Positions 5,353 to 61,960 of a stretch of DNA of 64,000 nt are shown piece after piece. Location of the stretch: NCBI GenBank assembly GCA_046563655.1, contig CM102285.1, forward strand, positions 868,001-932,000, given 5' to 3'. The stretch comes from Yuukianura sp. NJ FZ-2021. Lineage: Eukaryota. The stretch's first letter is position 1. Every line of letters starts with the position of its first letter. A program made the position numbers and the translations under genes. Below the pieces are notes generated by a model. That model was given only the letters and a program-made list of their open reading frames with translations. It ran no database searches and was not told where the DNA came from.

Positions 5353-5594
5353 TACACCCCGTTTTACGACCTACTTATTTTATTCCCACAGGGAAGCTTA
5401 AGTTCAAACGGAACAAAAGTAATCTCTTTATTTCATAAAACAAATAACAATTTTGAAAATTTCGCCGTACCACAAACTGTACCTAAAGAAAGTTTGTGAG
5501 ATTTTTTTTTCAAATGTACACCCAGAGGTTTACCAACAGTTGTAGGTTAGAGGGACAAAAACCTACACATAAACTAAAGACAATTAAAACAGAA

Positions 5595-9050: not shown

Positions 9051-12000
9051 ATGATGTCAAAATTATTATTTTTCGCAAATTTGTTAGCATTTACGTGTAG
9101 CCTTGAAACTGTCACTGTCGACTACAACCAATACCTTGCTCCATACGAGGCCAACTGTCACTCAGTTGTTATTGTAATGACATTTGACTATGTTGACCTC
9201 GTACCATTGACCTCTCCAGTGCAACTAATGACATTAGGCTACATTGGAACTTTCTTTTCTTACGCATGCCCAATAACAAGTTCCTCAACTCAGGATCTGA
9301 TTAATCAGCGGATTGGGTATCTCTGGCAAACGTTGACAAAACGTTCTTGTCTTGCAGTATTTGTCAACTACCAATCACAAATGCATGACTACTACTGGAA
9401 AATATTGATGTACCATTTACATTACTTCTGGAGTGTATTCAACTTAAATTCATATCTATTTGAACTTACAGATGAGTCGATTGAAAAAATCACAATGTAC
9501 CCCGGTTCAAAATATTCTATCACCTTTTCAAAATTTGCATACTTGAATGTAGTCGGCAGTTCTCGGGTTTCTGGTAAATTTCAACAGAGTTTCTACGTAC
9601 ATGCATATAGGAGGTATTGCCTATCAAGCTGCGTAGAATGGATGAGGCTGTGTCCACCCGCCTTTACGCAAGTTTTTTTCCATGATGTTGATATACCAAA
9701 TCAATTCACAAGTGCATCATGTATGTTTATAGGCCAGGTTGACTTTGGGCTAACGCCAAGCCAATGGGAACAAGCTTTGGCTGTTACCAAGAAACCAATA
9801 GGAGCATTTTCACTCCAAGAATTGGCGCAAATTTCACTCGGCAATAGAGCGAATTGCGGAAATTTCAAATTCCAGATTGTTAGCTTCGCACCGGTAGGCG
9901 CCAAACTCAATTTCTTTTTGAGTGAAGCCAAGCACGAAGTGAACATGATTGGCGACATAGGAGAGAGTGGAACTGACGCAGAAAAAACGTCGGAGCTACA
10001 CAATCTCATGTTAGGAAAATTGTTGTTTGGCGCCATTCCAAATATAACGCTAAACATGTTTCACTTTGGTTTTGACTTGTACTTTGGAAACGCCTACTTG
10101 CGAGATAAATACTTCACCGCTTGCTTCAAAATCGAAACTCAAATACCTCAATCGTATGGGTCAACTCAATATTACGTTGCCACGGAGACGGTGGCATACA
10201 CTTTTTTAGCATGTCATCTAGCAATATATGGCAGGTCATTTGAGTCATACGTTAAGCCTCTTGACCCCGAAGTTTGGATTGCCCTGACCTTGACCTTGAC
10301 CTTGGCCATCCCACTCTCATTTTACTTTTTACTTAAAAGAGACATCAGAGTACCGTTCTTCATCTATGCATACATTATGGAACAGGGTCCGAACCTAAGA
10401 GCAGCCACTCAGGATCTGCGCATGTTCAAACTCCTCATCATGTCACTGTCAATCATCACGATCATTCTGGGCAATGGCTACAGGAGTGTCGTCACAACGG
10501 AACTTTTGGCGCCAAAACTTTTTTCGCGCCTGGAGACATTTGACGATATCAAAAGCTCAGGAGAGAAAAGATATAAAATTTATATCGCCAACACAGATGA
10601 TAACGCCTACCATAGCTTCTGTTTTGACGCCACTAATAGCACAATGTGTATTTTGAATCAACTCGGTACTGCTCAAGACCAACCTCAAACAAGACTCATG
10701 GCGCATGACCAATTTTTGGTACAACTTGGTCGTAACTCCACAAAAAACTCGACAAACTGGTTCCTTTGGGAAATAGAACGGCTGTCAATGGTAGGACTGT
10801 CGGAATTCCGATGGACAAAAGAAAAATGCGAAGATAACGTTTACTTTAACACAGGTAACCAACTAACATATTATGTACATATCTCAAACTAATGATATTA
10901 ATATAATACAGATATATATGTATATCTGTATATCGGTATTGATATAACATTTGTTACATCGGAATTGTGAGGTCCATCTAAAAAAGTACGCCCAAAATCA
11001 GTAATTTGTTTAATTTTGAAACTATGGAGGGAAAACGAGCGGAATATCGCGATTTGTAAAAATTCCATCATAGCAGTTTAGCTAAAGTTTCAAATTTTGA
11101 GTTAACTTTCCCCTCGTGTTTACATAAGTTTCAATTAGTCTCTATGGAAACAAAATAGGGGTGTACTCTTTTAGCTGCACCTCACTGTATATATCGGTAT
11201 TGATATAATATATATCGGTATAGCTGTAATAATATTGATATGTGCATAACAGGTACATATCGATTTTATTATTTCCCTACTATGTATAATGATATATAGT
11301 GTCGTTCACGTAAACATATATACCGAAAAAAACTCTAAAGTTTGCCTATTTTCAAAATTGTACGTGGAGGTGTGAACACCAAATCCAAACCAAATAATTT
11401 GCGCAATGCATTTTTTTTGGTACGTTGTGAATTTTCCGGAAAATGTAAATAAGATTGTTTTCTGGATCTGCCCTTCAGAAATGTCTAATTTCGAAAAAGA
11501 AACGCCATGTGGGAACGATTTTGGAGTGCATAGTTTTACGTGAACAATATTGCATACACATACACACATCAACATACACTAACGTGTTGGTTTGAAATGT
11601 AGAGGAAACTGTGAAGAAGCATATCCTCATGTTTCGAGCTCGAGAACAAAATGGCGAGAATCCTGATCTTGAATTTTACATGGCCAAAGAAAAGAAATTT
11701 CAAATCGACAGAGGAATTTACGTTGAAAATTTGCACTACCTCGGTGAATACGGATTCAGAAGAGTTGGCGGAACTTTGCAGTCTGGAATTTTGGAATATT
11801 TGAATTCTCGATTTGAGCGGGAAAAAGAGCGCCTTTTTGCCGCCAGATTAAACCAAACACGTCAATCTACAAAAAAACCAACAAAACTTGGCCTCAACAT
11901 AAACATCCAAACGCTGTTCGTCTCAAATTTGACTTTGCTCACGGCTGCTTGCTTTCTCTTTTTCCTCGAAATTTCGAAATCAAAAGTAGCCTCTATTTTT

Positions 12001-12054
12001 CAAAATTCGTTTCAAAGGTTGAACTTTGGAACAAAGGTCACAAAAATTCATTGA
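9051..12054 (+). CDS. Divergent ionotropic receptor copy 2; exons 9051-10854, 11603-12054
   Basis: Paralogue of copy 1 with the same motifs and the same intron position (ACAG|GTAACC ... TGTAG|AGGAA). Confidence 0.85.
10964..11187. mobile_element. Tc1/mariner-type MITE in the IR2 intron
   Basis: GTGAGGTCCATCTAAAAAAGTACGCCC and the imperfect inverted GGGTGTACTCTTTTAGCTGCACCTCACTG, followed by TA. Confidence 0.6.
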
Positions 12055-12670
12055 AATTTGTATTAAAATTGGTGATTAGATTTGTTTATTAGCAGTTTTA
12101 GGTTTGGTGTTCTTTTGAAATTCCCGCTACGACATGAAACTGTTTATTCATACCGTATATGCAAACAGCAATCGTGCCGACATGCTAGTGTTACATCAAA
12201 AATAAAATAAATAGTTAACCTCTTTAAAAAATTTTGAAGTTTGGAAAATTGTAGTTCTTAAAGGTATCACGAAATGTAAAGTAACTGGCACGACAGTGTT
12301 ATGAATGTACAGAAGTTTATTCAATAAATTACTCCTATCAATTACTACACAGTATAGAAAAATTTTTATACAGAATCATTTGTTTTTGTCAAAACGGTAT
12401 GGAATTTTGTCCAGCAGCTTAAAGCGTATTTGAATTGCTCGGATGTACTTAATTTTCCGCTAAATAATACATAATATAATATAATATCATTTCATTAATT
12501 TAATCAATATCACCTATCACGTTGGAAATTTATACAAAGCAAAAAGGTTCCAGCTTTAAATATACATGAACCTAACTACGCCACATAACTCTTTCCCTAT
12601 TCTACGCTTGAGTTATTCGTCCGTGGTGAATGTTATTTTTCAAATTTTTGAAAAATCCAAAATTTCAAAA

Positions 12671-15237
12671 ATGATACCAGAATTTGTATCTCTCGCAAAT
12701 TTGATAACCTTTACCTTGAGTACTGAAAGTGTTACTATCGACTACAACAAATACCTCGCTCCGTACAAAGCCAATTGTCACTCAGTTGCTATTGTAATCC
12801 ACTTTGACTATGTTGACCTCGTACCGTTCACTTCTCCTGTTGAACTACGGACACTAGGCTACATTGGTCCACGAACTTTAGTTTCTGACGCATGTCCAAT
12901 ATCAAATTTAACAACTCAACATCAGATTAATCAGCGTATTGGGTACCTCTGGCAAACGTTGACAAAACGTTCTTGTCTTGCGCTATTTGTCAACTACCAA
13001 TCTCAATTGCATGACTACTACTGGAACGTGCTAATGTACCAATTACATTACTTCTGGAGTGTATTCAACTTAAATTCAAATCCATTTAAATTCACAATAG
13101 AGGCTTTTGACAAAATCTTCATGAATCCGTATTCAAAATATTTCATCACTTTTGGAAGATTTGCATACTTGAACGTCGTCGGAAGTTCTCGAATTTCTGG
13201 TAATTTTCAAGAAAGTTTCTATGGAAATGCGTATATTAGGAGGCATTGTATTTGGTCGTGCGCAGATATACGTCTCCTCTGCGCACCCGTCTTTACGCAA
13301 GTTCTTTTCCTTGACGTTGATAGTCCAAATCAATTCAAAAGTGTATCATGCGTTTTTCTACTACACATTGGCATTGGTATGACGAACAACCAATGGAAAA
13401 AAGCCATGGTTGTTACAAATAAACCCATTGGAGCATTTTCACTCCAAGAATTGGCGCGAATTTCACTCGTCAATAGAAATGAGTGCGGAAATTTCAAATT
13501 CCGAATTATAACTGCCCGAGAGGTTCCCCCCAAAAACAATTTCTTTTTGAGTGAAACCAAGAATGAAGTGGACATGATTGGCGACATAGCGGAGACCGGA
13601 AAAGAAGCTGACTTAGAAAAAAATTTGGAGTTACACAATCTCCTGCTTGGAAAATTATTTTTTGGCGCCATTCCAAATATAACTGTGCACATTCTTTACG
13701 TTAATCATAGTAACTCGGACTTTCAGAAAATCTACTTGGAATATAAATACTTCACTACCTACTTTAGAATTCAAGGTAATGCGTATCAACCTTACGGGTC
13801 AACTGAACATTACGTTTCCATGAAAACGGTGGCATACACTTTCTTAGCATGTCATCAAGTAGTGCATGGGAGGTCATTTGATTCATACGTTAAGCCTCTT
13901 GACCCCGAAGTTTGGATTGCTCTGACCTTGACCTTGACCTTGGTCATTCCACTCTCATTTTACTTTTTACTCAAGAGGGACAATAACGTACCGTTCTTCA
14001 TCTACGCATACATTATGGAACAAGGACCAAGTCTACGCGCAGCCACGCAGGGTCTGCGCATGTTCAAACTCCTCATCATGTCACTGTCAATCATCACGAT
14101 CATTCTGGGCAATGGCTACCGGAGTGTCGTCACAACGGAACTTTTGGCACCAAAACTCGCTTCGCGTGTGGAGACATTTGAGGATATCAAAGGTTCAGGA
14201 GGAAAAACATATAAACTGTATTACTGCCCCCAAGACCACAATCACTACTTTAACCTCTGTCTTGACGCATCTAATTACTGGGACTGTTTTGTTAATCGAA
14301 TCAGTAGCGATCCATACCAACCTCACCAAAGAATCATGATCTATGACGACTATTCAATAGCAAAAGTTAGAAAAAGTGGCGGTAACATCACAGAAAAATT
14401 GTCAAAGCTATTCTACTGGCGTAACATAATGGAAATTATGGTACATCCCGCGAAATTCAACTGGACAAAAAAACAATGTGCTGCCAGCGTTTACTTTAGT
14501 ACAGGTAACCAAATAACATGTTGTGTATATTTTTAGGTACCTTGACAACGAGAAGTTGTTGTTTTGTTTGTTTTTCGGTAACGAAAAACAGACAAAACCA
14601 CAACTTTTCGTTGTCAAGGAACCTTGTTCTTAAATATTGATTTATGCATATAATATTTTCATATTATGTACGCAGCTAATTATGTACATACCAATAAGTT
14701 GTTTACATAGCATATCACGCGTTATTTACATAACATATTATGTACATACTATGCACATGATAATATATTCACACATAAACGGTATTGGTTTAAAATGTAG
14801 AGGAAGACGTGAAGAAGCACATCCTTATCTTTCGAGCTCGAGAAAAACAAAATGGCGAGAATTCTGATCTTGAATTTTACCTGGGAAAAGAAAAGAAATT
14901 TCAACTCGACAGAGGAATTTTTGTTGAAAATTTGCACTACCTCGGTGAATACGGGTTCAAACGAGTAGGCGGAAGTTTGCAGTCTGGAATTTTGGAATAT
15001 TTGAATTCACGATTTGAGCGGGAAAAGGAGCGCCTTTTTTCCGCCAGATTAAATCAAACACGCCAATCAACCAAAAAACCAACAAAACTTGGACTCAACA
15101 TAAACATCCAAACGCTGTTCGTCTCGAATTTGACTTTGCTTGCAGTCGCTGTTGTCATCTTTTTTGTCGAACTAAGATCACAGATTGCATCTGTCTTAAA
15201 ATCCCGTCTAAGCTCAGTTGAGCAATTCACACATTGA
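12671..15237 (+). CDS. Divergent ionotropic receptor copy 3; exons 12671-14504, 14801-15237
   Basis: Paralogous sequence, same TM motifs and intron position. Confidence 0.85.
14535..14624. repeat. ~90-bp near-perfect palindrome (tiny foldback element) in the IR3 intron
   Basis: AGGTACCTTGACAACGAGAAGTTGTTGTTTTGTTTGTTTTTCG...CGAAAAACAGACAAAACCACAACTTTTCGTTGTCAAGGAACCT. One arm resembles ~8935-8975. Confidence 0.8.
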
Positions 15238-15847
15238 CACAATTAGACACGGTTGACCAGTTGATGCAATTCTAGTTGAAATAATTCTGTTGATGTAATG
15301 GGAGTTGATGTAATTTAATTGACACAATGGCGTGTAACGTAGGATGTAGGAGAACTACAGACTTCAGATCCTGACGGAATTGGAAATCGTGTTGACATGC
15401 AACAGAAAGGCACATCAAAAAAAAGTTAGGTGTTTATACAATTTTGAAAGACGTTTGGAGTTGAAAGCTTATGGAAAATTATAGTTTTTTTTATCATTTC
15501 ATGAAATGTATACCCATGACGTGTCAAAAGTGGTGAACGGAGAAAAATTTAAAAATTTGGCACAATGGTATGTCAAGCAGCTTTTTGCATATTTTAAATT
15601 GTTTGGATTGACCTTATCTTTTTCGCCCCATAATAAAACTTAATTTTATTTATTACTTATTATACAATTTTATTAGTATAATCAATATCACCTGGGAGAA
15701 CTATGCAAAACAAAGAGGTTCTAATTTATAAATATTAAGTGCAAAACAACCGAACTACACAAAATATCACTCTTTCTGTTTTATGTGAAAGGTATTTGTC
15801 AGTGGTGGAGATTAGTTTTGAAATTTTTGGAAAACCTATTTCAAAAA

Positions 15848-18574
15848 ATGATTCCAAAATTTGTATTTCTCTCAAATTTGATAGCCTTTACATTGAGTAT
15901 TGAAACAATCTCTATCGACTACAACAAATATCTCGTTCCGTACGAGGACAACTGCCACTCAGTTGTTATTGTAATCCACTTTTACTTTGTTGACCTCGCA
16001 CCGTTCACTTCTCCAGTGGAACTACGTACGCTTGGCTACATTGGTCCACGAACTAAGGTTTCAGACTTATGCCCAATATCAAATTGGACAACTCAAGATC
16101 TGATTAATCAGCGAATTGGGTATTTCTGGCAGATTTTGACAAAACGTAGTTGTCTTGCGCTGTTTGTCAACTACCAATCACACTTGCATGACTACTACTG
16201 GAAAGTTTTAATGTACCAATTGCATTACTTCTGGAGTGTATTCAATTCAAATTCATATTCAATTGATGTCACGGGCGAGGGGATTGAAAAAATCTATACT
16301 TATCCCGGCGCAAAGTATTTTATGACATTTGGAGTCTCTGCGTACTTGAACGTAGTCGGAAGTTCTCGCATTTCTGGTAAATTTGAAGAGCGGTTCTATG
16401 GACATGCGTACATGAGGTATTGTGCACGATTGTGTGTAGAATGGACTCGCCTCTGCCCACCCGTCTTCACTCAACTTTTTTTCCATGACGTTGATGCCCC
16501 AAATCAATTCAAAAGTGTATCATGCATTTTTCTCAGGCACAGTCGTAGATTGGCTGGTCTGACGCACAGCCAATGGCAAAAAACCCTGGTTGTTACCAAC
16601 AAACCTATTGGAGTATTTTCACTTCAAGAATTGGCACAAAATTCACTCGTCAACAGAAGAAATTGCGGAAATTTCAAATTCCTAATTCTTAGCTTCACTC
16701 AGCCACACCCCAAAACCAATTTCCTTCTGAGTGAAACGAAGCATGAATTGGACATAATTGGCGACATAGCAGATACTGGAACTGACGCTGAAAAAACTTC
16801 GGAGTTGCACAATCTCCTGCTCGGAAAGCTGCTGTTTGGCGCCATTCCAAATATAACGGTAAACGTGTTTCGCTACAGTTTTAATAACAAATCGCAAAAT
16901 AGACCTAGACTTCTAAGTCTCTACGTGCACTCTAAATACAATACTTCTTGCTTCAGAATCGAGGATCATGCACATCAATCGTATGGGCCAGCTCAACATT
17001 ACGTTCCCACGGAAACGCTATCATACACTTTCTTAGCATGTCATCAAGCAGTGCATGGCAGGTCCTTTGATTCATATGTTAAGCCTCTTGACCCCGAAGC
17101 TTGGATTGCAGTGACCTTGACCTTGACCTTGGTCATTCCACTCTCATTTTACTTTTTACTCAAAAGAGACAACCAACTACCGTTCTTCATCTACGCTTAC
17201 ATTATGGAACAAGGTCCAAGTCTACGCGCAGCCACGCAGGATCTGCGCGTGTTCAAACTCCTCATCATGTCACTGTCACTCATCACAATCATTTTGGGTA
17301 ATGGCTACAGGAGTGTCGTTACAACAGAACTTTTGGCGCCAAAACTCAGTTCGCGCGTGGAGACATTTGAGGATATCAAAGGCTCAGGAGGGAAGGCATA
17401 TAAAATGTATTATAGTATCACAGCCAAGAATGCCTACGCTAGCCTCTGTGTTGAGTCAACTAACGACACAAGATGTCGTTTTAATCAACTCATTACTAGC
17501 CAAGAACAACCTTTCACAAGAATCCTAACATACGACCAAGTTCTTCTACAAAGGCTTAGAAACAGTGGTGGTAACTCCACCAAAAAATTGTCAAAGCTAT
17601 TCCTTTGGCAAGATATTCTGGAACAGCTAGCATTGGATTCCGATAATCCGATGCAACCATTCCGATGGACAAGAGAAAAATGCGAAGCTAACGTCTACTT
17701 TAACACAGGTAACCAAATGACATACTATCTACATATTTGGAAATATTGATATATTTATATCGATATGTATATAATATGTTCATAGCATATGATTTACCTA
17801 CTGTGTATCATGGACATAATATGCAGTGTTGTTCACGTTTCACGTAGTGGTTGTTGTTCACCCACAAATATTGTTACGGGAATATTCAATATTTTCAAAA
17901 GTTATTTACAAAATTGTGGGAAGATTCCCACGCAAGTTCTTTTCTAAATAAGTTTTTCTGGATCTGCTCTTCAGAATGTTTAATTTTAAATAGATATGCC
18001 ATATGGGAATGACTTGGCGTTTATACTTTTACGTGAACAACATTGTATATTCACATAAACACACTAAAAGGTATTGGCTTCAAATGTAGAGGAAAACGTG
18101 AAGAAGCGTATCCTCATGTTTCGAGCACAAGAACAACAACATGGCGATAATTCTGACGTGGAGTTTTACCTTGGAAACGAAAAGAAATTTCAAATCGACA
18201 GAGGAATTTACATTGAAAATTTATACTACCTTGGTGAATACGGATACCGAAGAGTTGGCGGAACTTTGCAGGCTGGAATTTTGGAATATTTGAATTCTCG
18301 ATTTGAGCGGGAAAAAGCGCGCCTTTTTGCCGCCAGATTGAACCAAACATACTATTGGCCAAAACCTAAAAAACTTGGTCTCAACATAAACATCCAGACT
18401 CTGTTTCTGTCAGCAATCACTCTACTCGCAGTCGCTCTTTTTCTCTTTTTCTTTGAAATTCGTTCCTATCTTGTGTCCGTTGTGAAAAGTTCGTGTTGTT
18501 TTTTTCGTAATCTAAAAAATTTCGTCAAAAACCATTTCAATTTCAGGAACTTATTTCAAAAAACGCTTCAATGA
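15848..18574 (+). CDS. Divergent ionotropic receptor copy 4; exons 15848-17708, 18090-18574
   Basis: Paralogous sequence, same TM motifs and intron position. Confidence 0.85.
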
Positions 18575-47220: not shown

Positions 47221-47530
47221 AATTATATACTCTTTTAATATAATATAATTAAATGCATTCTAATACTTGTTTTGTCAAACTCAAATATAGTTGATACGTA
47301 ATTATCAATTAAAAGTGGATATTAAAATATACGACGAAGAATCTTCACACTTTCTTGAGTCCCACAAGCACAGGAATTGCATTGCATTTTCAATTTAGAT
47401 GCAAAATTTAGATATCAAATTGCTTTACAAACTGCTATAAAAAATAATTTGCATTTGTTTTTGAAAAGTTAGGCTGCGTTTACTTGGCACAAGATTCTTT
47501 CAAACAAACAAAAAACGCAGTACTAAAAAT

Positions 47531-47540
47531 TGTATAAATA
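47531..47540 (+). promoter_or_regulatory. TATA box of lipase copy 1 (conserved before every copy: ~49653, 53863, 56568, 61902)
   Basis: TGTATAAATA lies about 56-59 nt upstream of each lipase ATG. Confidence 0.7.
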
Positions 47541-47590
47541 CCAACCTCAAAAAGCTTTTCGTTTGCAGATTTAGTTTTAAAAGCAGAAAA

Positions 47591-48993
47591 ATGCTCGGCA
47601 ACGGATTTTTCGGAATTCAAATTTCCCTCATTTTTTTCTCGATACTCATTTTAGAAAATTGTGCAACTTTGAAAAAGTATGATGCTGCCAAAAAAGTTGT
47701 AAAATTTCTGGAAACTGTTCCCGCCATAACAGACGATCCATTCACCGAAGTGTTTCGGTTGATAGACAAAGTCTATGATAAAATAGGCATAAGTCAAGCA
47801 TTCAACGGGAATGCTGAAACGACTCAAGCCAAAGTGAGCAGTCCAGTACGCGTGACGAGACCACCAATTGAGTCTGCCGTTTACTACTACAACTACGCAA
47901 TGGCAGCTACATGTGAAAGTAGTTTGGAGAAATGGGACTGCTGCTACTGTAAAGTACTCGGAACACACATTCGACTGATTACACTCTATGTCAATCCTTA
48001 CTTCCACCACAAATGGTTTGTAACTGTGGATGACAAACGACAAGAAATTGTGTTGACCTTTCAATCTGCGTTGAACCTCGGAACAGCTTTTACAGCCGCG
48101 ATGTACATTTTGACCAAATTTGAAGAATCGCCTGACATCATGATTCACACAGGATTTTTAAAAGCACTTTCAGCCGATTATGACAAAATTGTGGCTGTTC
48201 TGAAACGTATAACAGAGTGGCATCCAAAGTACAAGTTGATTCTAACAGGTAAAACTTAATGCTTAATCTTTTAAACTTGTCTCACTTTTGTTAAATTGTG
48301 TGTAAATTTTGCACCATTTATGTTATTTCGTTATTCAAGTGACCTTGACCTTGACTTTGTTTTTTGTTAGGTTTGAGCTACGGCGCTAATATGTCTTCAC
48401 TCATGACTTTTTTGCTGAAGTATCGAAATACTTTGCCGAACACTGCAATTGAACTCTTCACTTACGGAGGGTTGCGTAACGGAAACAAAGCTTATGCCGA
48501 TTTTATGAACAACTTGACAATTCCAGTTGCACGCGTAGTTCAAACAGACGATTTGGCTGTAAGATTTCCTCCAGCATCTCTAGGCTACTACCACCATCAC
48601 AACGAACTTTTTATTTTGGATGATGGCGGTGGGAATCGAACTGTTGGCTACTGCTCAACAGAGTTCTACGAGGCTCCTGAGTGTGCACAGTCTCGTGGTT
48701 CTAGTTTACTCACCGTTCAGCCAAGCAAACTAGCCATTGATCATCTCTCGTACTTTGGGATTGAACCCAGCAAATGTTTACTGAATGCACCAATTGAATT
48801 TTTGTTACAAGCATTTTGGCCACTGCGCAGCCTCATTCCGGTTGACCTGTTGGACCAAATTCCAAAATTTTCTTTTGACTCAAACATTGTTGAAGACTGG
48901 CGCTACTTTGTTAATGCTGGAATTCGAAATTTGTATAAAGCTGCAAGCAAATCATCAACTTACTATAAGGCTAATGGATGGAAACCACAGTGA
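47591..48993 (+). CDS. Secreted class-3 (fungal-type) lipase copy 1; exons 47591-48248, 48371-48993
   Basis: Signal peptide, WDCxxC, IHTGF, spliced nucleophile elbow TG|LSYG, RVVQTDD (Asp) and DHLSYFG (His). Confidence 0.9.
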
Positions 48994-49709
48994 AGCGAGG
49001 ACAAGAAAACAATTTTTTTCGAGTTACAACGGCTAATAATTTATAAAGTAAGGAAAGCTACTTTATGAATTGATTGTCTGTCTTCCTGTAGTTGTAGTGT
49101 AGTTGGCGGCAATTATATATATATATATATACATATATTATATAATATGTTATTTTGATGTAGAGGAGTGATTGTCCTATTAAAAGTCTTCGATTCATCC
49201 TTGAAGTATTGCTTTTGCAAAAAAAAAATTCGTTCGTTTCTTAAGTTATACGGTATGATTTAGGTATTACATAGTATAATTGAGTATACGATACTTAAAT
49301 ATAATGTATATGCAATTACTAATTAAAAGTGAGTGTCAAAAGTGAAAAAGCAATTCTCCGTATGCATGAGCGAGTCAAGAAGTTTTGCAGGTTCAGTCGG
49401 ATCTTCAATCACGCTTTGATTGTCTTGTGATACGAATGACGACAATCAAAGCATGACTGAACAACCGACACAACCTTCAAAGTTAGTCACTAGTCACTTC
49501 AGCACGGAAAAAAAAATTAAATTTTCACTCTAAAATCATATCAATTTGTTTCAAAAACAATTATTTTAAATTATTTGGAAATTTTTACAGCATTCGCGCC
49601 AATTATTTGACAGGCATTCCTTTCAAACAAACAAAAAGCTTGGTAGAAATTGTATAAATACTAACATCATAAAACTTTTTGTTGTAGATTTCGTTTTAAA
49701 AGCAATAAA

Positions 49710-49915
49710 ATGCTCAGGCGCGGTTTTTTTTTTGGAATTCAAATTTTCCAAATTTTTTGTCGCTACTTATTTTCCAAGAATGTACAAACTTTGAACAAGT
49801 ACGATGCTGCAAAAGACGTGATGAAATTTCTGGAGAGTGTTCCAGCCATAACAGACGATCCATTCACCGAACTGTATCAGATGATAGACAAAGTGTTTCA
49901 TAAAATAGGCATAGG
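49710..49915 (+). pseudogene. 5'-only lipase fragment truncated at a duplication breakpoint
   Basis: Encodes the lipase N-terminus up to KIGIG, then switches to sequence matching the flank upstream of PA-RING copy 1 (AAACTCAATCC.GAA.G, ~44445). Confidence 0.85.
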
Positions 49916-50227
49916 CTGTGAGAAACTCAATCCCGAAAGGAAGTTTATAACTTAAAATTAGCACCTTGTTTATTGAAAATTGACGAGTGCAAAAAACTGC
50001 AACACTGCACTGGTGCAGTTCGCTTTTTTAATGTCCGAGTCCAAGGTTTTCTTCTCAGAATTTTAGTGTAAACTTTATGGTAGCCTAGACTGTAAGCTTC
50101 TGTCAAGCTATGAAATCATCTCTTCAAACTAGTGTCAACTAAACATCAGCTGCTTAGTCTCTAATAAAAGTCTGAATGCAATTAACAGTTCAAATAAATT
50201 TTACTTAACGTAATTTGGATTTACATA

Positions 50228-52798
50228 ATGATCGACAGAAAGTACGTGACAATTATTGTCATTTTGTTTATCCAAAGTCACGTTTCATTTGGAATAAAAT
50301 TTGCTGAGCAATCTGTCCATGTTTACAACGACGATTGGACTCTGGTTGCTAAGATACCAGTTCAAAGAGTTTTTGACAAAAAACTTCCCACAAAAGTTCA
50401 AAAAATTGAAAACGTAAGGATTTTTTTCTGCTTTTTTCATTTTTGAAATTTGGTTGCTTTTTTTTTTGAGAGTTTTTTGGTTTGTTTTGTGAAATTTTTG
50501 CATGCGTTAGGCTGTGCTGTTTGTGCCGAGTGATGGACATGGGTGTGACTTGGAAAATTTGGGCCATCCAAAAATTAAAATGCAATTGGAGTGGGAGAAA
50601 AGTGAAAATTTTGAAAAACCTGATGGGCGAAAATTTGAAAATTTGGACTATATTTTACTTTTGAACGCTCTACATTGTGATTTACCTACGAAAATTCAAA
50701 ATGCTTATTTGGCGGGCTACACTGCCATGATTTTGCACAATACAGTTGCAAATGATAACCCGAGTTCAGTTGTTCTGGAAGCCTCGGATGTCCGTTCAAA
50801 TTCTCGCGCCATCAAAATCTATTTTGTGGGACAAAAGTATGGTAGGCTACTCGTTGACTTGTTTACTTTCCCCAAGAGGTAACAACAATCAAGTTAGTGT
50901 ATGAAAGTTAACAACAATTTCAAAATGGGTGCCAATTTTAAAATTTTCAAAATTATGAAAAACAGATTTTTCATCCGAGTTTGTGCCGATGTGGAAGACT
51001 TTTATTTGACACGATTTGCGGATGATTTAGAAGGAAATGTTCCGAAAAAAATGAAACCAAAACCGGCAGTACGACTCCCACCGCTACGCAAAGCCACGAC
51101 TTTCAAAAAAACGCGGGACACTAGTTTGTTAGGGTAAGTTCAAAATTTGCAAAATTTTCATAATTCAAAAAAAACAACAACTTTCGTTTGTTTTAGTTTG
51201 AATCTTATGTCACATGACGATTTCGAGCACTTCCTTGAAGATACATGCTACTTTCCTCGCGTTTTAGCATTTTTTGGTGCAATGATCCTTTGGATTCTTC
51301 AAAATGGAATTGTTTGGGCAGTTATTTTGACGTGTGGCTTCTTCGGTTGCGTTGTTCTCCTAAGTCTAACGAGTCCCGTTTTGGAATTTTTTGAAAAATA
51401 CGCACCGAGGGCGCGAAGAGTTTCCGTTCACGCACCTGACCATCCTAACGCAAATCCCCCACCGGCGCGTGAAAATTTCGTCGTTAACGACGCCCTGATG
51501 CAGGAAATCCTTCGTTTGTTTGAAAGAATTCAGGAATTGGAAGGCCAGCAGAACCAGCAGGCGGTTCCCGCTTTGGCTCCAGAGGTCATTGACTCATTGC
51601 TGGAATTTGAACTGAACAACGAAGGTTAAACTTAATGAAAATAAATAAACTAAATAAGTTTAAAATATTTTATTGACGTTTCATTATAATATTATTAAGT
51701 ATCGTCAGATACTTATAGGGATCGTAATGTCCGTCCGTCCGTCCGTCTGTCCGTCTGTCCGTCTGTCCGTCCGTCCGTCTGTATACTAGCCACAATATCT
51801 CTGGAACCGCTGGACCGATTTTCAATGTGTCTTCACAGATGAACTACACATGGTCCAGGGGTGGACCAGTGGTTTTCGGTTTGACCGGAAGTGGCCAACT
51901 TCCGGGTCAAAGGCCAAGGTCAAGTACATTTTCGACGAAATTTGGAAAAATGCCTTTACAAAAGTTGTTCATCTCAATAAGAGGAACAACTTTTCTGTCG
52001 GCGATGTTGACCTTTGACCTACGGTTCTAGAGATATAGACGCTGCAAGTTGCAAAATGGCGTCGCTCATGCTACGCGCGTCTATAACTTTGGAACCACTG
52101 AACCGATTTTTAACCTGTCTGCGCAGATGACCTTCACATGGTACAGGGGTGACTAATCGGTTTCTGGTTTGACCGGAAGTGGCCAAATTCCGGCCAATCC
52201 TAAAGCGGCCAATTTCAAAAGCCGCCAATTTCTAAAGCCGCCAAACCTAAAGTGGCCAATTTGAAAAGCCGCCAATTTCTAAAGCCACCAATACCTTAGC
52301 CGCCAATCCTAAAAGGGCCAATTTCAAAAGCCGCCAATTTCTAAAGCCACCAATTCCTTAGCCGCCAATCCTAAAACAGCCAATTTCAAAAGCCGCCAAT
52401 TTCTAAAGGTCAACAATATCCGGCGCGGGAACTCTCTATAATTGATCTGACGATACTTATTTACATCGTCTTTGCAAGAAGTTTATTTTATTTTATTTGA
52501 AACAGAAGCAACACTCTTGGGTATTTGCGCCATTTGTCGGGAACAATTTGCAGCTCAAGAAATGGCCATCAGACTGGAACCGTCCTGCTCTCATGTCTTC
52601 CATGCTGAGTGTATTCAGCACTGGCTCAGAGTGGTATGAACCATATAATAGTACAATACACAAGTATTAAACATATTGCTAATTATGTTATATTATAATA
52701 TAATATATAATATATTATAATATATTATTCAAATTTTGAAGGGCGGGAACTGCCCCAATTGCCGAAGACCAGTTAGAGGAAACTTGGAAATCGACTAA
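50228..52798 (+). CDS. PA-TM-RING-H2 E3 ligase (RNF13/RNF167/Godzilla-like) copy 2, intact; six exons
   Basis: Same architecture as copy 1. The RING is complete: CAICREQF...CSHVFHAECIQHWLRV|GGNCPNCRRPV. GT-AG donors. Confidence 0.85.
51696..52484 (+). mobile_element. Helentron/DINE-1-like element in a PA-RING copy 2 intron, with an internal AAAGCCGCCAA array
   Basis: Homologous to 36167-36787 in the opposite orientation; (CCGT/CTGT)n. Inserted in a T-rich site and absent from the copy-1 intron. A ~15-bp-period array spans 52200-52405. Confidence 0.8.
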
Positions 52799-53918
52799 AA
52801 ATTTTCAACCGAAAGGCTGCTCGATCCTGTGTTACCACAAATATATAATTATCGCAGATAATTTTCTTTTGGTTTATGCTTTTGGATATAATATTATATA
52901 ATATAAAACTAATATTCTAATATTTATTTTAACAAAGTGCAGTAAAACCTCTCATCACGCAATACTATTTTCTGGCTCATTTTAGAGCCAGAAAGCCGGA
53001 AAACTCAAATTTGTTGCGAGATTTTGAATTTTATTAAGTTGAAAGACTTTCCGAAAATTAAATTTGTGATTTATGTTTTACTTTGGTGCACTTAGAAACT
53101 TTACGGTAACAACGCACGATTTTTTTGTGGAGCAATGAGGGGTTTTAATGTAACTCAAACATTGTATTTACTGATACGCAACGACTAACTACAAGTGTGA
53201 GTTAAATTATACCACTGACGACAATCACAGCATGTCTGAACCTTCAAACTTTCTTGAGTCACTCAAGGGCACAGGAAAATTAAATCTTCACTTTAAATAC
53301 ACATCAAATTGTTTAAAAACTATTATTTAAAATAATTCGGAAATTTTTTGAACTTTCGCGCCGGTTATTTAACGCTGGTTTCTTTCAAGTAAACAAAAAA
53401 CTTCGTAGAAATTGTATAAATACGAAGCTAAAAAACTGTCTGTTTGTAGATTTAGTTTTAAATGGAATAAAATGGTCAGGCGCGGATTTCTTTGAATTTA
53501 AATGATCAATTTAATACCATAGTTTATCACTAGTTTATCACTTTTTACTCTTACTCTTGTAATATAATATGATTAAATATATTCTAATACTTGTTTTGTC
53601 GAACTCAAATATAGTTGATCCGTAATTATCAATTAAGAGTGCATATTAAAATATACGACAATCAAAGCATGCTGAAGAATCTCCGCACTATCTTGAGTCA
53701 CGCAAGCACAGGGAACATTACATTTTCAATTTAGATGCATATCAAATTGCATTAAAAACTGCAATAAAAAATAATTTGCATTTGTTTTTGAAAAGTTAGG
53801 GTGCGTTTACTTCCCACAAGATTCTTTCAAACAAACAAAAAACGCAGTACTACTAGAAACTGTATAAATACGAAGCTCAGTAAACTTTCTTTTCACAAAT
53901 TTAGTTTTCAGCAGAAAA

Positions 53919-55325
53919 ATGCTCAGCAGCGGATTTTTCGGAATTCAAATTTCCCTCATTTTTTTTTCGCTACTCATTTTAGAAAATTGTGCAACTTTGA
54001 AAAAGTATGATGCTGCCAAAAAAGTTGTGAAATTTCTGGAAACTGTTCCAGCCATAACAGACGATCCATTCACTGAAGTGTTTCGGTTGATAGACAAAGT
54101 GTTTGATAAAATAGGCATAAGTCAAGCATTCAACGGGAATGCTGAAACGACTCAAGCCAAAGTGAGCAGTCCAGTGCGCGTGACGAGACCACCAATTGAG
54201 TCTGCCGTTTACTACTTCAACTACGCAATGGCAGCTACATGTGAAAGTAGTTTGGAGAAATGGGAATGCTACTACTGCAAAGTACTCGGAACTCACATTC
54301 GATTGATTACACTCTATGTCAATCCATACCACCACCACAAATGGTTTATAACTGTGGATGACAAACGAAAGGAAATTGTATTGACCTTTCGACCTGGGAT
54401 GAACCTCGGAACATATTTGACAGTCGGGATGAGCATTTTGACCAAATTTGAAGAATCGCCTGACATCATGATTCACACGGGATTTTTAAAAGCAATTTCA
54501 GCCGATTATGACAAAATTGTGGCTGTTCTGAAGCGCTTAACAGAGTGGCATCCAAAGTACAAGTTGATTCTAACAGGTAAAACTTAATGCTTAATCTTTT
54601 AAACTTTTCTCACTTTTGTTAAATTGTTGGCGAATTTTGCACAATTTATGTTATTTTGTTATTCACGTGACCTTGACCTTGACCTTGTTTTTCTGTTAGG
54701 TTATAGCTACGGCGCTAATATGTCTTCACTCATGACTTTTTTGCTGAAATATCGAAATACTTTGCCGAACACTGCAATTGAACTCTTCACTTACGCAGGG
54801 TTGCGTAGCGGAAACAAAGCTTATGCCGATTTTATGAACAACTTGACAATTCCAGTTGCACGCGTAGTTCAAACAGACGATGTCGCTGTAAGATTTCCTC
54901 CAGCAGCTCTAGGCTACTACCATCACCACAATGAACTTTTTATTTTGGATGACGGCGGTGGGAATCGAACTGTTCGCTACTGCTCAACAGAGTTCTACGA
55001 GGCTCCTGAGTGTGCGCAGTCACGTGGTTCTGGTTTTCTCACCGTTCAGCCAAGCAAACTATTCATTGATCATGTGTCGTACTTTGGGATTGAACCCAGC
55101 AAATGTGTACTGAATGCTCCAATTGAATTTTTTCTACAAATACTTTGGCCACTGCACAGCCTCTTTCCGGTTGACCTGCGGGACCAAATTCCAAAATTTT
55201 CTTTTGACTCAAACATTGCTAAAGACTGGCGCTACTTTGTTAATGCTGGAATTCGGAATTTGTACAAAGTTGCAAGCAAATCATCAACGTACTACAAGGC
55301 TAATCGATGGAAAACTACGGTATAG
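53919..55325 (+). CDS. Class-3 lipase copy 2; exons 53919-54576, 54700-55325
   Basis: Paralogue; elbow G-Y-S-Y-G, DHVSYFG. Confidence 0.9.
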
Positions 55326-56625
55326 CGAGAACAAATAATTTTTTTTTGAATTTCTTTTGCTATTAATTTAATATTACTTTACAGAACCCAAAGTTTCATT
55401 TGACGTTCAATAAATATAGTATTGTTGTATAACTAAATATATAATTCACTCTTTGGGTCCTTAATTAGTTAACTTACGTTATTTAACAAGTTCAGCAAGC
55501 ATGAAAGTTCTCTTGTTTAGTGTTTGTAACTTATTGTCCAGCATTTGGTTTGCGATGTCCTGCATTTGCACTTGATTCATCAATTTTGTGTGAAAACTAA
55601 AAGAAAAATGTGTTTTAGAAAAAGCGGTTTTTTCATAAGCGTCGCAATGGAAGCGGAAAGACGACTAAAACAAAAGCATCTTCAAGAAGAAGACAATTTA
55701 CTGCAAAAAAAAATACGTGTAAGGTGGATAAACAAAGAAATACTTTTTCCTTAACAGGTTAAGCAATAACTCGAGTTTTAAGTTTTTTGCAAAAAAAGAA
55801 TTCAATATGAATTCACCCAGTTTCTATCGCGGTTGAATTGGACAACGGCATTATAAAATTCAGTGAGCTGGCTTTTGAATTCGCAAATTCAAGGTAGAAA
55901 AGGATCAAAATGTAGAAAAAAGATATAAAAAATTGTGTGGGGCGAGATATTTCGAAAACAGGACTGACTGCCAAACCTCTTAAAGCAAACGTATTTCGTT
56001 GCTATAGAAACCTTCGTGAATACTGTTAAAAGCTAGAAGAACTTATTCAAGAGGAATTTTTATTTACTTGGGTACTTAATTTTGCATTTGTTTAAACATA
56101 ATTCAGGATGTTGAAAAATTCCAACGCTTTGATGGATTGGAATTGAATATATTTTTAATCACCTCCCGAGTACAAGTCCAATTACCTGGTCAGTGAAATC
56201 ATATTTTCAAGCTATAGTATTAATTCAAAATCTGTTGATTATTTTCAAATTAACTTTCAACTTTTCCGTTTTACTCTTACAGTATAATAATTTTAAACAT
56301 GTCCTAAGATTTATTTTAATATTGTGTAATTAAATATAAGTAATGTGGAATTATTAATTAAAAGTGGGTGGTAAATTATATGACTATCAAAGCACTAATC
56401 AAAGCACGACTGAAACGTCGACTGAATCTTTGAACTATATTTTCACTCCAGCGCAGGAAAAATTACAATTTCACTTTAAATACACATTAAAGCGTTTCAA
56501 AACTATAATTTAAAATAATTTCAAATTTTGTTTTTTGAACAACACTACACAAAAAATGAAGAAATTGTATAAATAGGAAAGCTCAAAAACTTTCTGTGTG
56601 CAGATTTAGTTTTAAAACTAGCAAA

Positions 56626-58566
56626 ATGCTCAGGCGCGTATTTTTTGGAATTCAAATTTCACTTATTTTTTTCTCTCTGCTCATTTCAGAAAATTGTGCA
56701 ACTTTGAACAAGTACGACGCTGCCAAGAACGTTGTGAAATTTCTGGAAACTGTTCCCGCCATAACAGACGACCCATTCACCGAAGTGTATCGTTTAATAG
56801 ACAAAGTGTTTGATAAAATAGGCATAAGTCAAGCACTCAACGGGAATGCTGAAACAACTCAAGCGAAAGTGAGGAGTCCAGTGCGCGTGACGAGACCTCC
56901 AATTGAGTCTGCCGTTTACTACTTCAACTACGCAATTGCATCTACATGTGAAAGTAGTTTGGAGAAATGGAACTGCTACTACTGCAAAATACTCGGAACA
57001 CACATTCGACTGATTACACTTTATGTCAATCCATACCACCAAACCAAGTGGTTTGTAACTGTGGATGACAAAAGACAAGAAATTGTGTTGACCTTTGGAC
57101 CTTCGTTGAACCTCGCAACAGCTTTTACCGCCGCGATGGCCATTTTGACCAAATTTGAAGAATCGCCTGACATCATGGTTTCTTCGGGATTTTTAAAAGC
57201 AATTTCAGCCGATTACGACAAAATTGTGGCTGTTCTGAAGCGCGTAACAGAGTGGCGTCCAAGGTACAAGTTGATCCTAACAGGTATAACTTGATGTCAA
57301 TCTTTTAAACTTGTCTCACTTTTGTTAAATTGATTGTGCAAAGGGTAGGGCAGCTTTATTTAGCCAATTTGGAATCTTAAATTACATAAGTTAAGCACTA
57401 ACGTTAAGTTAATTTCGGGACAAGCACCAAAATGAAGCCCTTGAATTTTTGTATGAATTCCACATCTTAGGTTAAGCGCTGCTAAAATTGAAGTGACCTT
57501 TAGCGTAGTCACCTGGCGTAAGCCCCTGGTTTAAAGTTTCCACTCCCTTTAAAATCCTATAGGAATTTAACCCACTTAATCTCAAACTTTTTTTTTCTCT
57601 CACTGATTTTTGGAAAAGGATATTAACGCTTCAATACTGGTTTGTTCAGTCCGATTTTTCATTTTTCATTGAACTTGATTATATTGGAGATTGTTTGATA
57701 CCAAACACGGTAACCTTTGACCTCCAATCGTTACCGAAAAAATTATGAAACCTAGTTATGAAATTCGCGGCAAAGTATCTTAGTAGTGTGTAGAGCACTA
57801 GGATGAGTTCAGATTTCTAAACCATTAAACCAATTCGGAGTAATTCAAACCCGCGTTTGGCTAAATAAAGCTGCCCTACCCTCTGTAAATTGTAGCGCCA
57901 TTTACGTTATTTCGTTATTCAAGTAACCTTGACCTTGACTCAGGTTTGAGCTACGGCGCCACTATGTCTTCACTCATGACTTTTTTGCTGAAGTATCGAA
58001 ATACTCTGCCAGTAACCGAAATTGAACTTTTCACTTACGGAGGTGGGCGTTGCGGCAACAAAGCTTTTGCCGATTTTATGAACAACTTGACAATTCCAGT
58101 TGCACGCGTTGTTCAAACAGATGATCTCGTTGCTAGAGTTCCTCCAGCATCTCTAGGCTACTACCATCACCACAACGAACTTTTTATTTTGGATGACGGC
58201 GGTGGGAATCGAACTGTTCGCTACTGCTCAACAGAGTTCTACGAGGCTCCTGAGTGTGCACAGTCTCGTGGTTCTAGTTTACTCACCGTTCAGCCAACCA
58301 AACTATTCATTGATCATGTGTCGTACTTTGGGATTGAACCAAGCAAATGTGTCCTGGAAGCTCCACTTGAATTGTTTCTACAAACATTTTGGCCACTGCG
58401 CAGTCTCATTCCGGTAGACCTGTTGGACCAAATTCCAAAATTTTCATTCGATTCAAACATTGTGGAAGACTGGCGCTACTTTGTTAATGCTGGAATTCGA
58501 AATTTGTACAAAGTTGCTAGCAAATCATCAACTTACTCCAAGTCTAATGGATGGAAACCTCAGTAA
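56626..58566 (+). CDS. Class-3 lipase copy 3; exons 56626-57283, 57944-58566
   Basis: Paralogue; elbow G-L-S-Y-G. The intron is enlarged by a MITE. Confidence 0.9.
57339..57885. mobile_element. MITE in the lipase 3 intron
   Basis: 26-bp perfect inverted AGGGTAGGGCAGCTTTATTTAGCCAA. Absent from paralogous introns. The right end CTG is followed by TA. Confidence 0.85.
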
Positions 58567-58740
58567 AACGAGAACAAAGAAATTTGAGCGGCTAATACTT
58601 ATCAAGTAGTGAGAGCTACTTTATGTCTGTCTGTCTATCTGTGTCTGGCCTGTCGTAAGCGGCAAGTATTTCCAAAACGGCTCAACATTTCCATGATTTG
58701 CTTTCAATAATCAAAACTGGGCGACTTGCAAGTGCAAGAC

Positions 58741-59172
58741 GTAGCAGGTCATGAGAGCTAAACCAAAAAGAGCCACTCCAACAAGGATTACTCAATAAGA
58801 GCTAAAATATAAAAACTACTCCAAAACAAGCTAATTCGATGAGGGCTACGTTAGATATAATAAATTCACTTATCTTCCCGCGCCGAAGCCGCGACGTTAG
58901 CTCATTTAATTGACATTAGCGACTAGTGCTTTCAATACCAAACGTTTACTGTATCTTTGATGCCTTTATGCAAATTACAAAGCTGTCTTATTGATTTTAA
59001 CGTAACCGGTTAGGTTTAAAACTCGGGAAGACATCAACCTTAAATTAAATTAGCCGTTATTGAAAATGGCCCGTATTGAATTATTGCTTTTTGGAGCAAT
59101 GCATACTTTTTAAGCTGTTATAAGTAGCTCTTATTGGAGTAGCTCGTTTTGGTTTAGCCCGTATATCCTGGA
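58741..59172. mobile_element. Foldback-like element with subterminal GAGCTAC/TCCAA repeats
   Basis: CAGG...GCTAAACCAAAAAGAGCCACTCCAA at the left and the inverted TTGGAGTAGCTCGTTTTGGTTTAGC...CCTG at the right. Internal GGTTAGGTT. Confidence 0.6.
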
Positions 59173-59354
59173 AAAGTTCTAATTCTACACCTAGAGCAAG
59201 TTTTAGCCTCCACAACTAACTGATTTTGAGGTTCTACACAAAGTCAGTTCTCATATAAAACTGTAAATAAAAGAGAAGTTAGAGTAACAAAGATTTTAAA
59301 ATGGTACATTTTTTTATACTTAGTTTTGGCGCCAATTACACAAAATTCAAATCC

Positions 59355-60798
59355 TCAATTTTTGTTTAATTTGGCGGAAAATACCAAATTAAAACTGATC
59401 ATTGCATCTGCCATTGCATTGCCACCACGACGGCAAATGCAATTCGATCCACGTAAATGGTTGCCCTTTTGCAGCACAATAGTATGATCCTTTTTTTCCT
59501 TTTGTTTTGCAAAATGCATCGCATTTTGATACATCGCATTTACAAAAGCACTTGACTGCATTCTTATTTGAATCTTTTTGATGTCTACACAGGATTTCAC
59601 CAAAGAAATTTGCATAATCTTTGTAGGCTTGTATAACCGTGCAATAGCGTCCATCTTGTTCATCACATTTTTGGGCAGGGTATGAACATACACATAGGTT
59701 TCCATAAGTTGCATCCGTTGTGCAACGACCTGTTGCATTTTTGTATGGAGAATTCGTAGCACAATTGCTGTTTCATTTGTCCTTGTCGCAAGTGCAACCG
59801 CAGATGCCGTTTTGTACAAGGCATGTGGGGTCGTCTCCATGGCTTTTGCATTCCAGCGGATCTCCTTGGAAACCAAAAAATAATGTTTGGATTGCAGTAG
59901 ATTGCTTAAGGTATAGATTAGGTTGAACTTGCGCTAGTTTTTTAGGAAATGGAAGTTCGCTAACCTTGACCACAACGTGTCTTCGCGGTAGAACATTTAG
60001 GTCCTTTGCAAGCACAGTAAGATGGAAGATTTCCCATATTTACGAATTTGTTTGGATCGTCGTCTAAATTTGCAAGCTGGTGACAATCGAGGAATTTCAA
60101 GCCTTCTTTGTCGCACTTCGCCTCGCAACCATCGCAAGAGGACACTCTATAATACAGAAAATTCTTTTACATAGTTAGATATGGTTAGATAGATTATAAA
60201 ATGTATCTAATTTTTGTATAAAATTTCTTATATATAAGAGATTTTCTATACTATAGAGTGTCTTCTTGAGACACTCTATAGTATAGAGACGGAGATATGG
60301 ACAGATACAGATAGAGGTAGTATAGTATTTATATATACCATATACTATACTATCTCTATCTGTATCTATCTATATCTATATCTACCTATTTATATCTATA
60401 TCTATCTATCTATATATATACAATATACAGGGTGTGCCAGCAGAAAGTAAACACTGGAAAAACAATCTGTTTGGTTATATGAGTAAATATGAGGTGGAAA
60501 TCGTAGCAAATGTTAGAAAAATTAACAATCGTTGTCATAAAAACTTCACCAAATTTAATTCTCTTTTTTCTATACATGTTTTCCCCTCCATGGTTCTAGT
60601 TTTTCCTTAAGTTGCTCGCAGCAACAAATTCTAGGCGTTTACTTTCTAGTGGCACACCCAATATCTAATGTAAAAACGTTATGAATGTATTACAAAATTT
60701 TAGAATTGTTGTAAATTATAAAATTACTTGTAAGTATACGTATCTCCTTTTAACATTTTTAGCCAAAGGTGCATCAGAACGAACAATAGTAACTTCAT
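59355..60798 (-). pseudogene. Secreted Cys-rich multi-domain defensin-like (CS-alpha-beta-like) gene with an in-frame TGA (59775-59773) and a probable late frameshift; exons 60798-60728, 60146-59965, 59864-~59355
   Basis: Signal-like MKLLLFVLMHLWLKMLKG splices in frame to VSSCDGCEAKC...YCACKGPKC..., then G|DPLEC...ICGCTCDKDK*NSNC...GRC...LCVC...CFCKCDVSKCDAFC...YYC. The frame stays open and Cys-patterned for more than 120 codons after the TGA. Confidence 0.65.
60428..60661. mobile_element. Mariner-type MITE in intron 1 of the Cys-rich gene
   Basis: TA-CAGGGTGTGCCAGCAGAAAGTAAAC and the imperfect inverted GTTTACTTTCTAGTGGCACACCC. Confidence 0.7.
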
Positions 60799-60943
60799 GG
60801 TGCTGTTGTGTTCCTCAAAAACAAACTGAAAAATAAAGTCAAAATGAAAATGCTTAACCATGAGGACCTCTGTAGCAAAACGATTCTTTCCAGAAAGAAA
60901 CGTAAATAATAAAAAATTTAAAAGTTGATTAAAATAAGTTATA

Positions 60944-61157
60944 CAGTGAGTGCCACGAAAACCTGCACACCTCAAAAGCAGCTTTTTGTTTATTTTGCTA
61001 AATTGTGGGGGGAAAAAGGTTTCATGAAAACAGCTGAAATGATTGTTTTGCAACAGAATCAAGTTTTTAAGCTCAAAAGTTACGTTTTCGCCTCCATGAT
61101 TTTAGTTGTTGCCAGGGAAACAAATTTGGGGTGTGCAGGTTTTCGTGGCACTCACTG
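60944..61157. mobile_element. Young Tc1/mariner-type MITE (214 bp)
   Basis: Perfect 28-bp TIR CAGTGAGTGCCACGAAAACCTGCACACC, with TA on both sides (60942-60943 and 61158-61159). Confidence 0.92.
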
Positions 61158-61960
61158 TATAAAAAATTCATCAGTTTGACGTATATTACATATGGAGTTG
61201 AGAATTGCTTTATCACGGTAATGAGCAACTTATCCTTGCTGAAAATTAAGTTTAAACTAAACTGCTTTGTAACCGTTGACTTTTGGTGATATGGAACATG
61301 GAAGTGTAAAAAATAGAAAAACAACTTTGTTCCAATTTCAGTTCACAATCCTTCGACACAAGAAAAATTTTAGCAAGGCAAATACAATGGCGGTTTATTA
61401 AATCTATTTTGATGTAGAGGAGTGATTGCCCTATTAAAAGTCTTCGATTCATCCTAAATTTATAGCTTTTGCAAAAACAAAAAACTTTGGTTTCTACCGT
61501 TGTAGGCCAGGATTTAGGTATTACATACTATAATTGAGTATACGATGCAAATGTAATTGATATGCAATCACTAATTAAAAGTGCGTGTTAAAAGTGAAAA
61601 TGCAATTTTCCGTAAGCATGAGTGAATCAAGAAAGTTTGCAGGTTCTGTCGGATCTTCAGTCATGCTTTGATTGTCGTGTGATACGACTGACGACAATCA
61701 AAGCGTGACTGAAGAACCGACATAACCTTTAAACTTTCTTGAGTCACTTAAGCACAGAAAAAAAACTAAATTTTCATTTTAAAATTACATCAGATTGTTT
61801 CAAACACAATTATATTAAACGATTTGGAAATCTTTGAGCATTCGCGTCAATTATTTGATACACATTTCTTTCAGACAAGAAAAAAAACATTATAGAAATT
61901 GTATAAATACCAACATCAAAAAACTTTTCGTCTGCTGATTTAGTTTTAAAAGCACTTAAA

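Follow-up and report, generated by a model that had tools for sequence, protein, structure and literature searches.

A 64,000-nucleotide stretch of the Yuukianura sp. NJ FZ-2021 genome (positions 868001-932000 of contig CM102285.1, here C3, in the 98.7-Mb, 22-contig assembly GCA_046563655.1) carries on its minus strand, at 59355-60798, a candidate gene for a chain of small cysteine-rich modules. The locus raises the question of whether defensin-like domains have been joined here into one secreted protein. The sequence-only reading had proposed that splicing gives such a protein and that it represents a concatenated defensin-like family. We refer to the whole stretch as the window, and positions are those of the window unless C3 is named. 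Sequence comparison supports placing the locus in a real orphan family of multi-module, secreted, defensin-like genes, with paralogues carrying 30 cysteines and signal exons, and with no database homologue found in the searches made. The copy in the window is itself most likely a pseudogene.

A check for intact paralogues revealed three in the same genome, at C3:852889-853539 and C3:856631-857293, both roughly 70-75 kb from the window copy, and at C3:4409762-4410406. Their open frames are 215-221 residues long, contain exactly 30 cysteines and end one residue after the last of these. Upstream of each frame, as in the window gene, lies a signal exon whose donor is in phase 2, and all three hold their five modules in a single exon; the signal exons end in a similar G/A-D-x-x-T motif. 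Exon 2 of the window gene matched the three paralogous places at 36-41% identity (E 3.5e-7 to 1.2e-5 in the genome search), and exon 3 matched the paralogues at 31-33% (E 1.5e-4 to 0.005). A second broken copy, at C3:3950304-3951096 (L018:1443-2248), no longer has an ATG and shows frameshifts together with two insertions, one of 50 nt and one a TA repeat; the window copy stands much further from the intact ones than this copy does. When 114 kb surrounding the window and 30 kb surrounding the distant copy were searched by local tblastn, no further members appeared, and the total of five, which comes from single-protein genome searches, is a lower bound. Among the intact copies the ratio of non-synonymous to synonymous change (dN/dS) was 0.47 (0.32-0.66), 0.75 (0.48-1.22) and 0.93 (0.65-1.53). 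These values and the two apparently dead copies out of five fit birth-and-death turnover, but are also compatible with relaxed selection. Birth-and-death patterns are familiar from host-defence peptides.

Each intact chain's 30 cysteines form five sets of six, and every set finishes in CxC. Modules 1, 3 and 5, which we call type A, have a CxxxC element and cysteine spacings of 2/3-3-9-22-1, 4-3-10-9-1 and 4-3-8/9-17-1, respectively; six cysteines with CxxxC and a carboxy-terminal CxC were present in all nine A modules of the intact copies. This is the six-cysteine pattern of the cysteine-stabilised alpha-beta (CS-alpha-beta) fold, and it occurs once in the six frames of the window and in none of 60 third-order Markov simulations. 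The type B modules, 2 and 4, lack CxxxC and have instead a gap of 7-9 residues between their second and third cysteines (six of six in the intact copies). Between modules 2-3 and modules 4-5 the aligned identity is 26-32%, and the chain was probably built as A-(B-A)-(B-A) by internal duplication. Profiles of the A and B modules did not align with each other beyond the CxC (probability 1.2%).

Structure prediction and a fold search, which the sequence-only reading had put forward as a check, pointed towards a CS-alpha-beta-type architecture for the odd-numbered modules. An AlphaFold model (mean predicted local distance difference test score, pLDDT, 74.6) has a helix and a hairpin in each of modules 1 (helix 4-13, strands 17-23 and 42-47), 3 (helix 88-97, strands 104-109 and 113-118) and 5 (helix 178-186, strands 192-196 and 208-214), with block pLDDT values of about 58-72, 72-79 and 87-94, respectively. 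In the structure comparison the top 12 of 44 VIA rows were defensins, a LURE peptide, mytilin, termicin, nasonin or a scorpion peptide. Module 3 of a paralogue superposes on termicin (1.1 Å, 33 residues) and nasonin-1M, although its Z scores for these tie with others; BmBKTx1 superposed at 1.2 Å over 31 residues. All seven matches of the A profile to PDB sequences were scorpion toxins, nasonin-1M or defensin-1, none of them significant. One of 14 Pfam queries passed its cut-off (SLR1-BP, 23.3 against 22.7 bits); Toxin_3 and Gamma-thionin reached only E 0.06-0.17. A genome profile search with PF07333 gave no match anywhere and is uninformative, its controls being likewise unmatched. Taken together, the cysteine pattern, the model, the superpositions and the profile matches make it very probable that the A modules adopt the CS-alpha-beta fold, with the helix tied to a beta-hairpin, as had been proposed.

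For the B modules the same check returned nothing clear. None of nine B modules matched Pfam, the B profile found one chance match among PDB sequences, and a fold search with module 4 alone, made from a weak model, was uninformative. B modules are predicted to comprise two helices and a hairpin, joined to the following A module by a one-residue linker. One possibility, and only a tentative one, is that B is a six-cysteine domain not described before, perhaps a modified CS-alpha-beta form with one more helical turn, and that it packs on the next defensin module through the one-residue CxCxC junction. In that case the B-A unit would make a new 12-cysteine compound domain, and the family would be a multivalent defence protein that evolved independently in a soil invertebrate. 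Such packing fits superpositions with plant defensins, in which some of the aligned residues preceding module 3 come from module 2 (model range 67-123).

How new is such a chain? CS-alpha-beta concatemers are already known, so the suggestion of an undescribed concatenated family holds for the sequence family and the alternating B module, which have no match, and not for the principle. In the parts of the sources cited here, the X-tox proteins are described as secreted chains of 3-11 CS-alpha-beta motifs with no conserved cleavage sites, unprocessed into active defensins and restricted to Lepidoptera, for example Spod-11-tox and Gall-6-tox (PMC2728511); nasonin-2 and nasonin-6 of Nasonia vitripennis as having 4-5 units without processing signals, nasonin-6 having one exon per unit with phase-1 introns; and repeats as known in fungal defensin-like peptides (PMC2853521). 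Like X-tox, the present chains have a signal followed by several CS-alpha-beta motifs, here three, with spacers lacking conserved cleavage sites. Unlike X-tox, which on the cited description uses one motif type (C-x4-C-x3-C-x7-G-x-C-x3-K/R-C-x-C) with a gap of four between cysteines 4 and 5, they have gaps of 9, 17 or 22 at that position, alternate the A modules with a module lacking CxxxC, and show no sequence match. With nasonin-2 and nasonin-6 they share a design of several units, here five modules, whose linkers lack KR or RR; in contrast to the account of nasonin-6, all five modules share one exon after a phase-2 intron, and two module types alternate. Termicin, mytilin, plant defensins and short scorpion toxins resemble modules 1, 3 and 5 in cysteine pattern and predicted helix-hairpin fold, but are single-domain, and their hairpin loop is far shorter than that of modules 1 and 5. 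A comparison possibly within the same animal group, as far as the cited part of PMC10051947 describes it, is with three Collembola defensins from Sminthurus viridis, which have the six-cysteine CxxxC/CxC motif but are made as single-domain precursors of 63-72 residues; that part mentions no multi-module form, reports defensins in one of five springtail species surveyed for antimicrobial peptides, and suspects hidden novel ones.

Searches for the family itself gave no homologue among 13 candidates of near length or 35 of shorter length, and none with a three-sequence profile among 1.84 billion representatives, a collection that covers eukaryotic intron-containing genes thinly, so that absence is unproven. 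The Atlas gave no usable match, and the full profile had none among PDB sequences. In the literature, where few subscription journals and no supplements were covered, only X-tox, the nasonins and the single-domain Collembola defensins turned up. Judged by its spacing, its exon structure, its second module type and the lack of a sequence match, the family shares the X-tox and nasonin design without being a member of either group.

The explanation that best accounts for the whole, and that we favour on balance, is that the window gene is a paralogue, inactivated recently, within a small family specific to its lineage and encoding a tandem, probably defensive chain. We consider secretion as a single chain likely. 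The product would be about 215-220 residues long and rich in disulfides (up to 15), presenting three defensin-type surfaces and two B modules and not cut into single defensins. Defence, a role we regard as somewhat better than evenly probable, might proceed by multivalent binding of microbial, probably fungal, surfaces or enzymes, and the cationic last module would be the part likeliest to contact membranes. Birth and death would drive turnover in the family, and the window copy would be an old branch, long constrained, which then gained a stop, lost a cysteine and acquired a frameshift.

A different use of the same chain is the most serious competitor, and we give it real but minority weight: a secreted, disulfide-rich protein that is not antimicrobial, such as an X-tox-like immune modulator, an enzyme inhibitor, an anti-predator ion-channel ligand, or a reproductive or recognition signal. 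The CS-alpha-beta matches include LURE, brazzein, Art v 1 and scorpion channel toxins beside defensins; most modules have low charge; and X-tox, according to the cited part of PMC2728511, lost its antimicrobial function. However, module 3 superposes closest on termicin and nasonin-1M, within the ties noted above, and the intact chains are cationic overall, with a net charge of +8 to +13 to which module 5 contributes +3 to +8. MACPF/SNTX-like genes near two of the intact copies are a weak hint of a defence-rich region.

We then return to the window copy, whose predicted three-exon minus-strand layout was borne out by its coordinates, splice sites and phases. Exon 1 (60728-60798) contains the ATG, a signal-peptide-like stretch (best 9-residue hydropathy 2.74; cleavage judged by eye) and the first mature residues, and ends at a GTAAT donor in phase 2. 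Intron 1 (60147-60727, 581 nt) is bounded by GT and AG and agrees in phase and position with that of the paralogues. Exon 2 (59965-60146; TAG acceptor, GT donor, phase 1) encodes module 1 and the start of module 2. Exon 3 (59355-59864), behind the AAG acceptor that the sequence-only reading had noted, holds the remainder of module 2, the broken modules 3-5 and a tail, with an in-frame stop at 59391-59389 and a shifted-frame stop at 59357-59355. Between exons 2 and 3 lies a putative intron 2 of 100 nt (59865-59964; GTTAG to AAG, phase 1), which is absent from the three intact paralogues and from the second broken copy. A genome search with these 100 nt matched only itself, leaving the reading as a repeated mobile element unsupported, and no DNA contig skips them. 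CAAGG is repeated at both ends, the segment is bounded by GT and AG, and its exact removal gives module 2 a gap of 7 between cysteines 2 and 3, as in two paralogues. On these features it may be an intron private to this copy or else one more insertion that disables the gene, and its splicing is putative.

Intron 1 contains a miniature inverted-repeat transposable element (MITE)-like element, stretches of simple repeat, and duplicates of the intron's own acceptor region. The MITE-like element occupies 60425-60664 (terminal inverted repeats 28 nt, 86%); 140 nt separate the ATG from a second, upstream one at 60939-61162 (terminal inverted repeats 38 nt, 97%), where contig depth is very high. Two copies of the acceptor region exist, one inverted (31 nt, 87%) and one direct, the latter 129 nt upstream on the gene's strand (positions involved: 60132-60162, 60241-60271 and 60270-60287). 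The inverted arm could form a hairpin over the true acceptor, and the direct copy offers a decoy AG whose frame reaches a stop about 8 codons on. Matches to miRNA families in Rfam within the intron were all below cut-off and fell on simple-repeat hairpins.

Three lesions mark the coding sequence. Module 1 (60008-60136; spacing 2-3-9-22-1, net charge -4) is intact, and module 2 (59794-59995), split by intron 2, has six cysteines, ends in CxC and is collinear with its paralogue counterpart once the 100 nt are set aside. Module 3 (59686-59790) has five cysteines and a premature TGA at codon 115 (59773-59775), in the column of its conserved second cysteine. Module 4 (59542-59667) has five where the paralogues have six, the third being absent. 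Module 5 (59433-59538) has four in frame and its last two in another frame, with the frameshift between cysteines 4 and 5. The copy thus has 6, 6, 5, 5 and 4 cysteines plus two out of frame, 28 against the family's 30. The three CxxxC...CxC modules, the two intervening ones, the stop before NSNC and the shifted-frame NCIC are all present as first described; the secreted protein that splicing was said to give is most likely not what this copy would yield. For the end of module 5, the shifted frame scores 31, 22 and 22 against the three paralogue tails (BLOSUM62 local scores), the in-frame tail 11, 19 and 16. We rejected the in-frame tail, with its chance CxxxC, as the true end, given this poorer match and a variant contig that turns one of its cysteine codons into a stop.

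The window copy is 31-33% identical to the paralogues over 188 codons, with a proportion of synonymous differences (pS) of 0.69-0.74, near saturation, and a dN/dS of 0.27-0.47 that is unreliable at that saturation. Because 28 of 30 cysteines were kept over so great a distance, it was probably functional for most of its history and damaged recently. DNA contigs were available from three runs (X1, X2 and X3) of one sample, X1 perhaps being the source of the assembly. Of 40 contig differences tabulated, 16 in or just past the exons were examined; the other 24 are in intron 1. The TGA is unchanged in contigs of all three runs: an X1 contig spans 59100-60346 and an X3 contig 59696-59862 without differences, and an X2 contig spanning 59696-59838 has three other letters, none in the stop. 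Variant contigs of X2 and X3 occur at similar depth and probably represent a second haplotype, because the genome has a single copy of this DNA (no close copy of 59300-60200 was found elsewhere in it). We are nearly certain that the window copy yields no full-length protein, and fairly confident that it is non-functional.

The main challenge to its inactivity is a shortened, living gene encoding a precursor of 114 residues, made up of signal, modules 1 and 2 and one extra cysteine, while the remainder decays. None of the three lesions precedes the stop, which falls in the last exon, and modules 1 and 2 retain 12 of 12 cysteines. Variants in exon 2 comprise four synonymous and four non-synonymous changes against an expected synonymous share of 0.21, yet this reaches only p = 0.07; just after the TGA all three variants are non-synonymous, and the tail has deletions. 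Against a functional short form, one cysteine would stay unpaired, the intron 2 sites are weak, and a retained intron 2 stops the frame inside module 2. The intron 1 acceptor could be masked by its inverted copy, with the decoy running into a stop, and one low-depth contig (depth 7, 28 letters on its short side) skips 60747-60841 including the ATG, a weak indication. We think a shortened form unlikely, and a pseudogene with a stop, a cysteine loss and a frameshift remains the reading we prefer for this copy.

The linkers speak against the term polyprotein, in the sense of a chain cleaved into separate defensins after secretion. The modular design would suit such processing, as would the Gly/Pro-rich linker of 8-11 residues between modules 3 and 4. 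But the four linkers measure 4, 1, 8-11 and 1 residues, so that two of them, and 6 of 12 across the intact copies, are a single residue, and KR or RR occurs in none of the 12; the four KR pairs in the chains lie within modules and are unconserved. X-tox, nasonin-2 and nasonin-6 have likewise been described, in the cited parts of their sources, as unprocessed into active defensins or without processing signals (PMC2728511; PMC2853521). Cleavage into separate defensins is thus improbable. Still less credible is an intact gene in which misassembly produced the stop and the frameshift: the runs do share one sample and one may be the assembly's source, but the X1 contig agrees throughout, the X2 and X3 contigs cover the stop unchanged, and no gap is listed at the frameshift. 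Reading the TGA as selenocysteine, to give a seleno-defensin, is the least plausible of all, for although the codon falls in a cysteine column, is unchanged in a variant contig differing at three nearby sites, and the genome has a tRNA-Sec (C1:1875741-1875826, 71.1 bits against a cut-off of 47), the selenocysteine insertion sequence (SECIS) family is absent among 16 Rfam matches up to E 10 in 58300-61900, a simple SECIS pattern has no match downstream, the paralogues have cysteine, and the lost cysteine and frameshift would remain.

The window gene had been described as embedded antisense in a lipase array. It does lie on the opposite strand between two lipases, but in the intergenic spacer (58566 to 61907), overlapping no lipase coding exon. 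Its neighbours are two-exon class-3 lipase genes on the plus strand (Pfam Lipase_3), tail-to-tail at 56560-58566 and head-to-head at 61907-63491. They are members of a tandem array (47465-63491 and L010:225-1740) that numbers at least five class-3 lipase genes, all of two exons and secreted-looking; the only homologues found were five metagenome proteins at 48-61%. Near two of the intact paralogues are three MACPF/SNTX-like pore-forming genes (Pfam PF24674, over cut-off), all on the minus strand: one at 2472-3842, split into two open reading frames by a TAA at 3108-3110, and two at L007:7589-9157 and L009:7754-9268. A reverse transcriptase reading frame (RVT_1; L009:3769-5370, minus) lies between those paralogues and the window. 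The region also contains an array of single-frame proteins of 620-675 residues with several hydrophobic segments (5487-17749; L007:2500-7432; L009:289-2151). None of the four scanned matched Pfam, and by eye we take them to resemble divergent ionotropic chemoreceptors.

The window copy is thus of minor interest, being probably dead and carrying its private 100 nt as a putative intron; the main objects of interest are the three intact paralogues and the B module. Of the known defensin chains of moths and a wasp, X-tox has lost its killing activity on the cited account (PMC2728511). The three intact copies offer an independent, testable case of tandem CS-alpha-beta design, and the unmatched B module may represent a new small disulfide fold.
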